64,000 nt of DNA from Waddliaceae bacterium. GTDB lineage: Bacteria; Chlamydiota; Chlamydiia; Chlamydiales; Waddliaceae. Under the pieces are notes generated by a model, which made no database searches, was not told the origin of the DNA, and saw only the letters and a list, made by a program, of their open reading frames with translations. Below are positions 37,334-42,632 of this stretch, piece by piece. The stretch lies in contig CAVRUH010000005.1 of the NCBI GenBank assembly GCA_963724325.1, positions 128,001 through 192,000 on the forward strand. The letters are read 5' to 3'. Each line of letters opens with the position of its first letter. Position 1 is the stretch's first letter. The translations under genes and the position numbers were made by a program.

Positions 37334-37657
37334 TCAGATAGTTCCGTTCAAGGTTCCGTATTCTACTAAAGTTTTCACAAAGAAAACATGTAGCTTTTCT
37401 TGTTCGAGAACATGAAGAAACTTGTTACATTCTTCTTCGCTTAAAATAAATACAATTTCTATTGGAATATTAGAGGCTAATTCAAAAAAATGTTCCTCAT
37501 GTATGACTCCATGGCGCCCAAAGCCTGCTACAGCTCGAAATGCAGAACCACCATGTATTCCGAATTCCTTTGCTTTTTCAATAAGCCATTCATAGAGAAG
37601 GATTCCTTTATGCTTGATATTTTCATGAGTATAAAATTTTAATTGGATTCCGTTCAT
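37334..37657 (-). CDS. DUF190 (PII-like) protein
   Basis: GIHGGSAFRAVAGFGRHG...LASNIP; follows crcB. Confidence 0.9.
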   Translation of the reverse strand: MNGIQLKFYTHENIKHKGILLYEWLIEKAKEFGIHGGSAFRAVAGFGRHGVIHEEHFFELASNIPIEIVFILSEEECNKFLHVLEQEKLHVFFVKTLVEYGTLNGTI

Positions 37658-38068
37658 TTATCCTCCGATTAAATTGTAGATAAGTTTTGAAGCTGCATAT
37701 CCCATAACAACCATAATAATTGAGCCGCCTACATGTAGACCTATTAAGGTTGTAAGCCAAAATATCTCTTGTCTAGAGATAAGTGTAAAAGCCTCAGCTG
37801 AAAATGTGGAGAAGGTGGTAAGGCTTCCAAGAAATCCAGTAGTGATTCCTAATCTGATATCGTATGAAAAAAATGAGTGGTTGAAAGCTAAAAAGATTAT
37901 AATTCCCATTAATAAAGAGCCAAATAAATTTGCTGTAAGAGTTCCTAGGGGTATAGTGGGAAAGAAATGGTTGAAATATTCACCTAATTTCCACCTTAAC
38001 AATGCTCCCAAGATCGCTCCAATTGAAATACTTATTACTGCTTGCACATCTACCCCATAAAAATTCAA
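37658..38068 (-). CDS. crcB: Fluoride channel Fluc/CrcB (start may be GTG 38047)
   Basis: GAILGALLRW, PLGTLTAN, TGFLGSLTTFSTFS. Confidence 0.96.
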   Translation of the reverse strand: MNFYGVDVQAVISISIGAILGALLRWKLGEYFNHFFPTIPLGTLTANLFGSLLMGIIIFLAFNHSFFSYDIRLGITTGFLGSLTTFSTFSAEAFTLISRQEIFWLTTLIGLHVGGSIIMVVMGYAASKLIYNLIGG

Positions 38069-38189
38069 TTTAGTTGTTTAATGAATTTGTGGATATAAAA
38101 AAAGCGAGTGCTCTTGGCATTCTTCTTGACCAAATAAAAAGAAAAAATTTTTCTTGCAGAAGAATTGATGATTCCATTATAAGGTGATT

Positions 38190-38252
38190 ATGTATTTAGC
38201 AGTCTATTTATTAGTTTCCACTACGACAAATACGACCGGCTTCCGCCGGTAA
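38190..38252 (+). CDS. Candidate Thr leader peptide MYLAVYLLVSTTTNTTGFRR
   Basis: 5 Thr codons in 6 positions; accggc-ttcc-gccggt hairpin ending at the stop; 58 nt upstream of transporter. Confidence 0.75.
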   Translation: MYLAVYLLVSTTTNTTGFRR

Positions 38253-38310
38253 CACTCCCCCTGTCCTATACATTTTATTCTATCATTAAATTCAAATAAG
38301 GAGGAAACGT

Positions 38311-39474
38311 ATGTTTCGTAAAATGCCGATTATTTTGTTGGCGGTCATTGTATTTGCGCAGTTTGCAAATCAATGGATTTCGGTGCCGTATCAATCTATT
38401 TTATATGGGATCAGTTTGACCCTAAAATCTATCATTGTTTTTGTATTGCCCTTTCTTATTTTTGGGCTTTTATTTAAAACTTCTGTGCAACTTGCAAAAA
38501 AGGCTTCAAAGATGATTCTTTTAATTTTAGCCGCGATATGCTGCTCGAATTTCTTGTCGACATTGCTTAGCTATTCTGTGGGTAATATAGTCTATCAGTT
38601 TGATCTATCCATGCCTTTTCCAAAGGAGGGATCGGCTTTGATGCCTGCATGGGAATTTACCTTTCCAAAGTGGATTGGCAACGATCAGGCGATGTTTTTT
38701 GGATTACTTTTAGGAATTATTTCAAGCTGGATCAAGCCATCTTGGGCTGGTGAGATCTCTTTGAGGCTCGAAAAAATGATTAATTTGGTTCTAAAAGGAA
38801 TTCTTTATGTCATTCCATTTTTTATCACGGGATTTATAATTAAAATGAATCATGATCAAGTTATGGAATACATTCTACGTAATTATGCTTTAATTTTTGG
38901 TGTGATTGCCTGTGCAGTTTTTTCTTACATCGCATTAATTTATTTTATTGCAAATAGGTTTCAGATAAGAGGATTTGTTCAAAGCATTAAAAACATGCTT
39001 CCTGCTGGTATTGCAGGATTTGGAAGCATGTCGAGTGCTGCAGCAATGCCTTTAACCATATTAGGGACTGAAAAAAATTCTCAAAATCCTGATCTAGCCC
39101 GCTCAATCATTCCGGTAACTGTCAATGTTCATTTAATTGGAGATTGTTTTGCGATTCCAATTTTTGCTTTTGCGGTCATGAAAAGTTTTGGAATTTCAGA
39201 TCCATCATTTTTGACTTATTTGATATTTGCTGCATATTTTGTTTTGGCAAAATTTTCTGTAGCTGCAGTGCCTGGAGGGGGAATTTTAGTGATGCTTCCA
39301 ATACTTGAAAGTACGCTTGGATTTGATGGAGAGATGCTTTCATTAATGACGGCTCTTTATATCCTTTTTGATCCTGTGATTACATGTGCAAATGTATTTG
39401 GTAATGGGGGATTTGCGATGATTATTGGTCGATTTATTAAAAATTCTACAGAGGAGGTACCTTTAAAAACTTAG
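38311..39474 (+). CDS. Dicarboxylate/amino acid:cation symporter (SstT-like)
   Basis: Multi-TM; GFGSMSSAAAMP, NVHLIGD, AVPGGG, DPVITCANV. Confidence 0.9.
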   Translation: MFRKMPIILLAVIVFAQFANQWISVPYQSILYGISLTLKSIIVFVLPFLIFGLLFKTSVQLAKKASKMILLILAAICCSNFLSTLLSYSVGNIVYQFDLSMPFPKEGSALMPAWEFTFPKWIGNDQAMFFGLLLGIISSWIKPSWAGEISLRLEKMINLVLKGILYVIPFFITGFIIKMNHDQVMEYILRNYALIFGVIACAVFSYIALIYFIANRFQIRGFVQSIKNMLPAGIAGFGSMSSAAAMPLTILGTEKNSQNPDLARSIIPVTVNVHLIGDCFAIPIFAFAVMKSFGISDPSFLTYLIFAAYFVLAKFSVAAVPGGGILVMLPILESTLGFDGEMLSLMTALYILFDPVITCANVFGNGGFAMIIGRFIKNSTEEVPLKT

Positions 39475-39590: not shown

Positions 39591-42500
39591 TTAGTACTCA
39601 AAGCCTGAGCTTAAGCTGCCTTGCTTTTTCTCAGCATTGAGACAGGTGGTTTTTAAGTAGGAAATCATTTCATCATTGCCAGCTTTTTGAAAGCCTTGAA
39701 GCAGCGGGGAAAGCAATCTTTCCTTTTTGGCAACATCTTGTTCATTAATTCTTTGCAGCAAGCAATTTAGAAGGACAGCTCCTGGATCTTTATCATTTGG
39801 ACCGTCCGGAACTTTTTTGAAACTGTTGATGGCCCAATCAATTGCAGTGCTTTGGAAGGTGCCTCCCTGGTATTGTGTCGCAAAAACTGCAATCCAGTCT
39901 TCATTACTTTCTGGGGTTTGATTTTTTAAGTGGCCGTTAAGAATATCTATATATCCCTGTTTGTTTAAAGCTTCTTTTTCTTGACGAGCCATGATTGCCT
40001 GTTTTGCAGGTCCATCGTTCATCAACGAAACATCAAATACTGTCAGTTCCTTAATAGCTTTTCTGACAGCTGTAAAAAGGGTTAACGATGGTGCTTTCTC
40101 ATAGACTCCAATTTCTTCTGTAATGGCGTCGAGATTATGATTTTTGAGTGCTGCACTAAGTTCATTTAATAAGTTTTCTCTTTTTGATGGTTCTGCAAGT
40201 GCGTTTGCAACCCCCAATTCAGCTCCAACGACTTTCAGCTTACTTTGCAGGTAAGTATTAATTATTTCATTACGAAAAGCTCTGGTTCTTTCTTCGAACA
40301 CATTGAGCATTATTCCTTTTACTGCCTTGTACAAACCAAGGCCCTCCTTCGGATTTGAAAAATTTGACATAAGACGCTCTCGAATCATTGCCAAAAAGCA
40401 CTGATAGGCACAGCTTCCAGATTTTTGCACTGCTTCATAATCTTCTTCATGCGGAGATGGAGGTTGCTTAATACCGCCTGTGCACAATTCTTCAAGCAAA
40501 GCATATACAGGGGGCATATCAGATAATTTTGAATCAATGAAAGTTGTCCATTTTTCGGGATCTTGCAGATTTTTTATGGGAACTTCTCTATATTCTATAA
40601 AAGTTTGAAAGGTATTTTCTTTTTTCCCTTCAGGATGGTATTTTCCGACTCCTTGCCCTGTATTGTAATAAATGACGCGAGCCTTTCCTCCTCCGCTATT
40701 TTCAACTCTTATAAGCGTGGCGTGACCGGGTACAGATACGGGAATTAAACAACTCTGTTTTTCGGGCAAAGAATTTATTACATTCACTAATTCTTTAGAT
40801 TGCAGCAGGCGGTTAGATTCTATACCTATTTCTATTTCTAGCTCTGAGCCATGGAGTGCAGTCCATCGAGTCTGTTGTAATATCTCCGTATAACATTGCT
40901 TCAGGATGGGCTCTGCGGGATTTAGTGTTTTTGAAAGATTTGGATCAATATTTTCTTTAAGTTTTGATTGGGTGATATTTAAGGCATGAGCAAAATAGGG
41001 GGCTACCCAGCTTTGTTTACCACCGTTGTAGGCATCTTTTTCAGCAAAATACATTTTGTCTAAAGCAACATTGGCGATTACTTTATTCATTGTTTGCATC
41101 TCTTCTCCGAACCTATCAAATTTTTGGCTTAAACCAATATGAGAGGTATATCGAACAATTTCGTTAAGAAGTTCATTGTCGTTTTCTATCCATGCTAATT
41201 GCATAAGAATGCCATATATATCTGCTCCAGCAGTAATGGCAGTGCGAACTTTCTTATCTACGCTTTCCGCAAGATCAAATATTTGACGAGCTTTTGCGAG
41301 GTTTTCTCTTTGGGTCTGATTAAGATCTTTGGCATTGAAATCTGCTTGTGCTTTTTCGGCGCCTGGAACGTTATTTTTCACCAGGACTTGGAACTCATGA
41401 TCGATAATGTCCATTTTAAGGGCTCGGCGGTTGGGGTCTCCTGCAATTACTAAGCTTTGAGCGAGGGATTGATAAGCACGAAGTACATCATTACCAAGCG
41501 AGTTTTTGGCCTCTTGAAGTTCATTTTTCAGTGTTGTCGCTAGAGTGTTGTTGGATTCAATAGCGCTGAAAAAATCTGTATTTGCGATATCATCAAATGG
41601 TAAGCGTCTAGATAGCAAAATGGTTCTTAGGGCATCTGTGTGCTCATCATAAATGCATGTAGAGCATAGCTCTTTAAATTTTTCTTCAGGGAGTTCATTT
41701 ATTAAAAATCCACATTTTAGCAGGCCGATTACAAAATCCACATTCCACTTTTTAGTGATATAGTTCAGAGTTTTATTATCAGCACTTTTTTTCAAATATT
41801 CAGCAAATGGTGTAAAATCAAATTTGTCATGCAGAAAGCTTTCATTGCAAACCCAGCGGAGTGCACGAAGAGCAAATGGTTTTTCATTAATGAGCGTTTC
41901 CATTGGAATATATTTTAAAAACAAAGAGCAGCATTTGGGAGTATATGCAAAATCAAAAGGAATTTGGCCATCTTTATTGCTTAGAAGGGGATTTGCACCA
42001 CGAGCTAAGAATGCAGCAACTAAATTTTTGTCGTTATTCTCTGCTACTCCATGAAGTGCTGTACTTCCATTTTTTAGAGTATGATTTAAATTTAGGTCAT
42101 TGTGATTTAATAAATCCAGGGTCAATTTGCGAACTTCTGGATTACTGTCAAAAGCGAGTCGGATAAAGAGGGTAATGCCTTCTTCGGGATTTAGCAGGTA
42201 GTTCGGTCCTAGTTCCTGAATGGCATTGGATAAACGTTGCAACACATTTGGATTATTAATCAATTCCGACCGAACTTGATCGGTAAATTTAAAAAAATTT
42301 GAGATCCATGTTGCATTGGTTTTTTCTTCTAACATTTTGTCAAGAATGACAGAATTTGCCAATTTTGAAAGGGTTGTTAATTGATTACTCATTTCCGTTC
42401 GAGACAGGTTATTAAGCTCGGGTTTTGATATACGGAATAGGTGTGATGCTTTTTTGATTATTTCGCTACACGAGACAACGGAGTTTTGTTGATCTATCGA

Positions 42501-42632
42501 GCATTGCATGATTTCTTTTGAAAGTTTTTGGATTTGGTTGCATAGTTCTTCGTCTTTGGTTGCTTCTTGTGCATTATCAGCAATTTTAGCAAAGTCTCCG
42601 ACTACTTTTTGAAGATTATTTGAAATGTTCAT
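39591..42632 (-). CDS. Ankyrin-repeat plus CE-clan-like cysteine protease, putative effector
   Basis: GSTALHGVA...GANP...GQIPFDFA ankyrin; GHAT / YYNTGQG / QKSGSC in His-Asn-Gln-Cys order. Confidence 0.7.
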   Translation of the reverse strand: MNISNNLQKVVGDFAKIADNAQEATKDEELCNQIQKLSKEIMQCSIDQQNSVVSCSEIIKKASHLFRISKPELNNLSRTEMSNQLTTLSKLANSVILDKMLEEKTNATWISNFFKFTDQVRSELINNPNVLQRLSNAIQELGPNYLLNPEEGITLFIRLAFDSNPEVRKLTLDLLNHNDLNLNHTLKNGSTALHGVAENNDKNLVAAFLARGANPLLSNKDGQIPFDFAYTPKCCSLFLKYIPMETLINEKPFALRALRWVCNESFLHDKFDFTPFAEYLKKSADNKTLNYITKKWNVDFVIGLLKCGFLINELPEEKFKELCSTCIYDEHTDALRTILLSRRLPFDDIANTDFFSAIESNNTLATTLKNELQEAKNSLGNDVLRAYQSLAQSLVIAGDPNRRALKMDIIDHEFQVLVKNNVPGAEKAQADFNAKDLNQTQRENLAKARQIFDLAESVDKKVRTAITAGADIYGILMQLAWIENDNELLNEIVRYTSHIGLSQKFDRFGEEMQTMNKVIANVALDKMYFAEKDAYNGGKQSWVAPYFAHALNITQSKLKENIDPNLSKTLNPAEPILKQCYTEILQQTRWTALHGSELEIEIGIESNRLLQSKELVNVINSLPEKQSCLIPVSVPGHATLIRVENSGGGKARVIYYNTGQGVGKYHPEGKKENTFQTFIEYREVPIKNLQDPEKWTTFIDSKLSDMPPVYALLEELCTGGIKQPPSPHEEDYEAVQKSGSCAYQCFLAMIRERLMSNFSNPKEGLGLYKAVKGIMLNVFEERTRAFRNEIINTYLQSKLKVVGAELGVANALAEPSKRENLLNELSAALKNHNLDAITEEIGVYEKAPSLTLFTAVRKAIKELTVFDVSLMNDGPAKQAIMARQEKEALNKQGYIDILNGHLKNQTPESNEDWIAVFATQYQGGTFQSTAIDWAINSFKKVPDGPNDKDPGAVLLNCLLQRINEQDVAKKERLLSPLLQGFQKAGNDEMISYLKTTCLNAEKKQGSLSSGFEY

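Follow-up and report, generated by a model that had tools for sequence, protein, structure and literature searches.

Leader-peptide attenuation as such is known, and several described systems resemble the locus considered here. Among the closest is Ms5788A, a mycobacterial polycysteine sORF, which is a short, often leaderless reading frame whose control codons form a run close to the 3' end, a region that pairs with the downstream Shine-Dalgarno sequence without any terminator or antiterminator (10.1101/834739). The chlamydial leader shares the short frame, the codon run and the lack of a terminator/antiterminator, and a leaderless start in many copies and pairing with the Shine-Dalgarno sequence are predicted for it. 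Yet it carries Thr rather than Cys codons, its helix spans just 7-11 bp and is strong in roughly one copy in three, and it adds a 6-bp hairpin, almost invariant, that spans the last codons, as well as a G-free tract. Moreover, it is predicted to govern an uptake gene and thrS in Chlamydiota. The LEU element of actinobacterial leuA likewise forms a stem between the control-codon run and the Shine-Dalgarno sequence of the next gene, but differs in amino acid, target and phylum, and no pseudoknot was seen in the chlamydial leader; codon-dependent control of LEU is doubted in the same source (PMC1262725).

The Escherichia coli thrL leader (RF00506) comprises about 21 Thr-rich codons ending in T-T-G-x and senses Thr-tRNA, as the chlamydial leader is predicted to do. 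However, thrL controls thrABC, whereas the chlamydial element precedes a transporter gene or thrS, matches no Rfam family, is nearly devoid of Ile codons and lacks a separate terminator hairpin with U-tract in all copies. A further group, comprising tnaC, speFL, mgtL, corL and cruR, shares the order of an upstream open reading frame (uORF) followed by a C-rich, G-poor tract without intrinsic terminator. These attenuators respond to free ligands or Mg2+/Cu, and several uORF-controlled Rho attenuators of the set govern importers (PMC12360218); the chlamydial leader apparently responds to tRNA charging, and its Rho component is predicted. Finally, a His leader peptide has been used to predict the substrate of the permease LysQ of Lactococcus lactis, which concerns another amino acid, transporter family and phylum (as cited in PMC4833913).

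Little of this kind has been assigned in Chlamydiae. Chlamydia trachomatis reportedly lacks TrpL-type attenuation and its annotated trpL is unvalidated (PMC7755916), and the predicted attenuators of the Chlamydiae almost all lack an assigned function (PMC2965389). A search of the main texts of mostly open-access papers returned no account in which a Thr leader precedes a transporter gene or thrS of chlamydiae. The leader described here is real and conserved, it is very likely a Thr-tRNA sensor, and its output mechanism is partly resolved.

Layout of the locus and spread of the leader

The leader lies in the window, i.e., the whole stretch of 64,000 nucleotides that was analysed, directly upstream of a transporter gene (Table 1). 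The peptide ends in ...VSTTTNTTGFRR (translation of 38190-38252), and an alternative in-frame start, GTG at 38184, would yield a leader of 22 codons. The reading frame, the 6-bp hairpin and the 58 nt between leader and transporter ATG were correctly recognized in the first-pass annotation, which had set the hairpin behind the Thr run; it lies within the reading frame and does not stand outside that run. Among 1775 candidate uORFs, defined as those ending 30-110 nt upstream of 2017 long ORFs of the window's genome, the leader itself is the only Thr-rich one (at least four Thr near the end). No second leader copy was found in this genome, and its thrS is without such a leader.

Table 1. Features of the leader and transporter locus (window coordinates)
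Feature	Position	Strand	Remarks
Candidate sigma-66/70-type promoter	38153..38183	+	CTTGCA-16-CATTAT or TTGCAG-18-TATAAG; predicted
20-codon Thr-rich leader ORF	38190..38252	+	ATG 38190, TAA 38250-38252; kept in 63 distinct copies
Thr control codons	38220..38237	+	ACT ACG ACA (AAT) ACG ACC; five Thr codons
6-bp GC hairpin	38235..38250	+	last Thr codon to first base of stop; conserved; ACCGGC/TTCC/GCCGGT, -11.0 kcal/mol (folding)
Spacer	38253..38297	+	C/U-rich, almost without G; candidate Rho-loading tract
Transporter Shine-Dalgarno sequence and start codon	38298..38320	+	AAGGAGG 38298-38304, start codon 38311; sequence
Transporter, 387 aa	38311..39474	+	DAACS/SLC1 fold; Pfam SDF

Both promoter candidates, one of them with the TTGCAG box (38154-38159) named in the first-pass annotation, are predicted to place the transcription start no more than about 3 nt from the leader ATG, and a consensus scan listed no promoter at this position. 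When promoters are ranked by a simple score, the best -10 box has its end 5-8 nt upstream of an in-frame start codon in 23 of 51 copies, and in 21 of these the distance is 6-7 nt; if any -10 candidate is counted, 27 fall at 5-8 nt, compared to 9-17 in five other 4-nt bins. About half of the copies are accordingly predicted to have leaderless starts. The earlier suggestion of a leaderless leader thus holds up as a predicted trait of the family, while the window's own promoter is ambiguous and escaped the consensus scan. The intergenic region with the leader promoter is shared by a divergent operon of crcB/Fluc plus DUF190 (37334-38068, minus strand); no fluoride riboswitch matched within 37900-38500.

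The closest loci of the transporter bear titles that mostly name Chlamydiae or Parachlamydiales. By protein similarity alone, 47 loci were scored (L001-L005 and L018-L059), corresponding to 45 distinct loci, the window included, after removal of two duplicates; L060 (truncated) as well as L061 and L006-L017 (distant) were left out. A leader, defined as a uORF with at least three Thr within its last 12 codons, is present at 23 of the 45 loci, which bears out the proposal of a conserved Thr-codon leader at this uptake gene upon comparison of the upstream regions of orthologues. Two further leader loci (L038 and L055) were added by eye, and the remaining 20 have none. By inspection, several leader-free loci immediately follow another gene or a stretch resembling a promoter. 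On a quick tree, leader presence and absence require eight changes and leader-free rows cluster, a pattern that fits, but does not prove, an old leader lost several times. At L028 (1374-1500) a possible decayed leader has no in-frame Thr run and an altered GC hairpin; its clade mates keep the leader.

A DNA pattern search of 401 genomes of the phylum yielded 44 matches in 36 genomes. Since the control, in which the pattern was reversed, yielded some 21 matches as well when counted by hand, it is the genomic context rather than the DNA pattern that is specific. Of 39 matches inspected, 31 precede members of the transporter subfamily, two precede thrS and six are unrelated, the latter without Thr ORF or tract. 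A looser pattern gave 12 matches, eight of them known already, and a covariance model gave 15 in 151 genomes, where the best 12 all lie before the transporter and the weakest three do not. The pattern search of metagenomes gave 37 matches, of which 17 lie before the transporter and the other 20 are due to chance, 16 of these representing one recurrent GC-rich context. Eight of the 17 metagenomic loci (L135, L140, L142, L144, L151, L154, L159 and L164) encode proteins of a more distant branch, most of which are closer to proteins named from Proteobacteria; the 183 N-terminal residues of the L144 protein are identical to P0241, named from a gammaproteobacterial MAG.

After removal of duplicates, 63 distinct leader copies were available. 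Many were found by a Thr-containing pattern, and Thr counts among them are therefore partly circular: the control region (codons -12 to -5) comprises 262 Thr, 58 Ser and six Ile codons out of 504. The Thr run is confined to one frame (104 of 200 codons at 25 loci, compared to two and one in the other frames), and all four Thr codons are in use (ACC 71, ACG 69, ACA 39, ACT 28). The N-terminal halves and the lengths of the leaders are not conserved. The distance between leader and gene amounts to 50-68 nt in 56 of the 63 copies. At six loci (L036, L095, L144, L072, L151 and L140) the spacer is lengthened to 86-155 nt and the leader kept, at L036 through insertion of a strong hairpin; these loci represent natural tests of the importance of spacing.

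Threonyl-tRNA charging as the candidate signal

The element is not restricted to transporter genes. In genome G181 it lies 61 nt before thrS (TIGR00418, 455 bits at a cut-off of 384), and in G373 it is found 68 nt before thrS and also before the transporter gene. The two thrS products are only 38% identical, and the occurrence of the same element before thrS in different lineages points to Thr-tRNA charging as the signal, in agreement with what had been proposed from the window's sequence. Control of synthetase genes commonly entails induction upon starvation, and the re-use before thrS therefore suggests that the leader responds to Thr starvation with induction. Taken as a Thr-tRNA sensor, the leader is assigned with high confidence.

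The metabolic background of the carriers is in line with such a role. Homoserine dehydrogenase was not found in any of five carrier genomes, which are 85-99% complete (the controls gave a signal in 14 of 14 cases), and thrC scored above cut-off in one of the five (G118), so most of the carriers examined are probably Thr auxotrophs. If true, the leader would reveal a way for environmental chlamydiae to monitor an amino acid that they cannot make and obtain from the host. In G118, thrC lies within an open frame of 597 aa, possibly a fusion (C1:59885-60841); no leader match occurs near it, though this genome carries the transporter leader.

The thrS of G373 (L107, on C168) is the only one above cut-off in that genome, and it may be a horizontal replacement that arrived with the Thr leader aboard. 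The G181 enzyme is 64% identical to that of G000, the window's genome. The latter also contains a ThrRS-like sequence in two pieces below cut-off (C7:45335-46559), separate from an intact thrS on C1.

Candidate output mechanisms

The mechanism that we prefer, with confidence barely above even, is translational attenuation in the manner of Ms5788A, possibly enforced by Rho polarity. Before ribosomes arrive, the Thr-run region is predicted from covariation and folding to pair with the Shine-Dalgarno or start region of the transporter gene, closing a junction with the hairpin. When Thr is plentiful, a ribosome that often starts leaderless would pass quickly, the leader would refold and block initiation, and Rho would probably remove the untranslated transcript via the C-rich tract. 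If charged Thr-tRNA is scarce, the ribosome would stall on the Thr codons and cover the pairing strand along with the 5' arm of the hairpin. This would free the ribosome-binding site (RBS) and raise the uptake of threonine, and possibly of serine too, into a Thr auxotroph.

Evidence comes from a pairing test, in which 20 leader segments of 51 copies were paired with their own RBS or with swapped partners. One segment of the 20, denoted -36, covers the Phe/Ser codons and the first Thr codons (positions -36 to -22, counted from the end of the stop codon). Its pairing energy is -7.0 kcal/mol with the RBS of the same copy versus -5.6 kcal/mol with swapped ones (z -5.5, 0 of 5000 permutations). The same segment tested against the mid-spacer and four coding-sequence segments gave z values of 0.1 to -0.8, and other leader segments reached up to -2.9 in the controls. 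With one locus per 70% cluster the median z is -4.1 (worst p 0.006), and the signal is found within a single clade of 12 (z -3.7) as well as in the remaining 51 (z -4.3). Twelve held-out new loci point in the same direction at a non-significant level (z -1.5, p 0.07). Individual copies illustrate the exchange of partners, as Thr codon ACC lies opposite GGU in L073 and ACG opposite CGU in L078; L005 forms a different 7-bp helix.

The pairing is by no means uniform. A strong helix (-11 or better) occurs in 30% of the 63 copies compared to 13% of the swaps, neither helix reaches -8 in 18 of 63, and at the two thrS genes the helix between leader and RBS is weak (-5.1 and -4.2). Random synonymous recoding of the leader lowers the cost of opening the RBS from 9.3 to 7.7 kcal/mol (35 of 51 copies, p 1e-4), and a ribosome footprint on the Thr codons lowers it to 6.9-7.5, compared to 8.2 for a footprint at the stop (stall versus stop, p 0.086). 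Leader loci do not show a higher opening cost than leader-free orthologues (9.1 versus 8.2, p 0.15). For the window's own leader, folding predicts that two stretches of the Thr run (38222-38226 and 38230-38234) pair with the start region (38308-38312 and 38316-38320) at -10.4, and that the post-stop tract (38256-38262), capable of weak pairing, does so with the Shine-Dalgarno sequence at -7.8; together with the hairpin this would yield a three-way junction. A modelled stall raises the unpaired fraction of the AUG from 0.36 to 0.66, the Shine-Dalgarno sequence stays at 0.12-0.25, and a stall with the A site on the last Thr codon does not free the AUG.

RBS pairing alone does not explain the two universal parts, the hairpin and the C-rich tract. 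In 24 of 25 copies the hairpin has a folding energy of -8.2 or better; variants include a double change in L022 and register shifts in L036 and L039, and the L067 leader, which ends in T-T-T-T-T-G, has its stop codon inside the loop and retains an intact hairpin and tract. Formal covariation is not significant (one double change, 95% of cells paired, 63-87 of 500 shuffles as high); it is because of the conservation and the variant copies, not of covariation statistics, that the hairpin appears to be under RNA rather than peptide constraint. The leader would represent a compact, terminator-free attenuator.

Rho-dependent termination as the main output of Thr-tRNA sensing would account for the tract: the C-rich Thr codons and the post-stop tract would form a Rho site split by the hairpin, the 5' half of which is masked by a stalled ribosome. 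Unlike the RBS helix, the tract is universal, since in each of the 63 copies the 40 nt that follow the stop contain more C than G (on average 8.6 C and 1.3 G). The density of YC dinucleotides, 0.11 genome-wide, rises to 0.18 over the Thr region and to 0.21 immediately past the stop, and remains about twice the genome value over some 65 nt, but it is at background 20 nt past the stop, and the C richness is partly imposed by Thr, Ser and Phe codons. Control of Rho by uORFs is well precedented, importers included (PMC12360218), and rho is intact in all four other carrier genomes. In the window's genome, rho consists of several frameshifted pieces, each highly similar (G000:C5:229301-230550, outside the window), which probably reflects an assembly error; a true rho pseudogene in a chlamydia would be notable. 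Rho termination does not account for the covariation between leader and RBS. We rate Rho masking as the sole output as rather unlikely, and retain Rho polarity as an optional element of translational attenuation.

A classical terminator/antiterminator was rejected: no second hairpin with U-tract lies downstream of the leader in any of the 63 copies, and the 3' arm of the hairpin pairs no better with its own than with shuffled tracts, so that no competing antiterminator helix is apparent and a role of this arm as anti-anti-Shine-Dalgarno sequence was discarded too. Rfam gave no match in the window at E values up to 10 and none at gathering score in six homologue loci (positive control E. coli thrL, 122 bits). 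The first-pass label of a thrL-type leader is therefore not retained, given the missing match to RF00506 (Thr_leader) and the lack of a terminator/antiterminator pair. Terminators were judged by a rule of our own and by inspection, because the consensus scanner placed the terminator of E. coli thrL on the minus strand alone; a minus-strand call on the hairpin was dismissed by inspection, its tail being the complement of the variable Thr codons.

The hairpin itself might act together with a U-rich tract as a weak intrinsic terminator or pause site, with read-through when a ribosome stalled on the Thr codons covers the 5' arm. It is near invariant, begins exactly on the last Thr codon and passes as a terminator under a loose rule in 24 of the 63, yet at least five U within the 8 nt right after the stem are found in just seven, and the window's copy has one U there. 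Moreover, a ribosome running to the stop would also melt the hairpin and impose special timing, and a competing antiterminator helix is lacking. This explanation is improbable.

Still less probable is a reversed logic, where a post-stop anti-Shine-Dalgarno sequence is melted by a ribosome at the stop and the gene, encoding an exporter or exchanger, is on when Thr is abundant, or where a metabolite arrests the nascent peptide as in TnaC or SpeFL. The first 12 nt after the stop do pair with the Shine-Dalgarno sequence at -5.8 kcal/mol compared to -1.7 kcal/mol in leader-free loci, and a footprint at the stop opens the RBS most in L029, L088 and L107. However, the post-stop tract was rejected as a partner-specific anti-Shine-Dalgarno element (swap tests p 0.19 and p 0.06; spacer folding z equal to controls), and the re-use before thrS agrees with starvation induction, as established for synthetase genes. 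Conserved peptide residues up to the stop, as in arrest peptides of the TnaC/SpeFL kind, were not found: the C-terminal residues are set by the hairpin, vary (RR, SR, SQ, SL, GW) and are absent in L067. That the ORF encodes a functional microprotein, for which the hydrophobic N-terminal half of the window's leader could be cited, or is a non-functional by-product of a conserved RNA motif is scarcely credible in view of the unconserved N-terminal halves and lengths, the synonymous variation of Thr codons in a single frame and an ORF position fixed to the downstream start.

The transporter and its neighbourhood

The transporter shares family and fold with SstT, GltPh and ASCT2 (DAACS/SLC1), scoring 122.6 bits against Pfam SDF (cut-off 27.9). 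Its predicted structure (pLDDT 80.6) matches GltPh, EAAT3 and ASCT2 in Foldseek with TM values up to 0.75 at 15-19% identity. The "SstT-like" designation of the first-pass annotation is correct as to the family and fails at the level of orthology, since the protein reaches 25 bits against the SstT model (NCBIfam PRK13628, cut-off 308), shows 24% identity to E. coli SstT over 113 aa and differs in binding-site residues. It is, as judged by these comparisons, a member of a distinct, uncharacterised DAACS/SLC1 subfamily and not an SstT orthologue. In total, 1671 proteins at E 1e-10 or better, not all of them belonging to this subfamily, were obtained among 7997 candidates scored. The gene is patchy, as the same-genus genome G001 (97% complete) contains no match. 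Two orthologues, P0006 and P0043, bear Protochlamydia in their names.

In an HMM alignment, the TM7 motif NMDGT of Asp/Glu carriers, NMAGA in SstT, aligns with H274-L-I-G-D278. In TM8, D-x-x-R-T-x-x-N-x-x-x-D corresponds to D354-P-V-I357-T358-x-x-N361-x-x-x-N365; hence Ile takes the position of Arg, or of Glu in SstT, and the last Asp is replaced by Asn. Accordingly, SstT and the transporter both lack the TM8 Arg of acidic amino-acid carriers, and the TM8 pattern is kept in 242 of 248 proteins examined. In GltPh, R397 selects acidic substrates, and N310, D312 and D405 bind Na+. On this basis, the transporter should not carry glutamate or aspartate and may lack canonical Na+ coupling, while D278 could bind a hydroxyl side chain. 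Threonine uptake is predicted from the Thr leader, not from similarity to SstT, and the residues are compatible with it. The leader also suggests a substrate that can be put to the test for a large SLC1 subfamily, so far uncharacterised, with substrate and ion sites unlike those of all solved relatives.

Taken together, these features would combine into a broader picture, which we put forward tentatively and with less than even confidence: a portable, mostly leaderless Thr-sensing module that occurs in obligately intracellular bacteria, namely Chlamydiota and one or more Gammaproteobacteria, joins RBS sequestration to a hairpin-split Rho site, serves a new SLC1 subfamily stealing host Thr (Asp-for-Arg site, non-canonical ion coupling), was independently grafted onto thrS and might be the first true leader-peptide attenuator family in Chlamydiota.

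Two further observations concern the surroundings of the transporter gene. Convergent with it lies an ORF for an effector-like protein of 1013 aa with weak ankyrin-repeat matches (39591-42632, minus strand). Further upstream in the window, tandem ORFs of 334 and 286 aa (29792-31761, minus strand) look alike by eye and contain glycine-rich, methyltransferase-like motifs.
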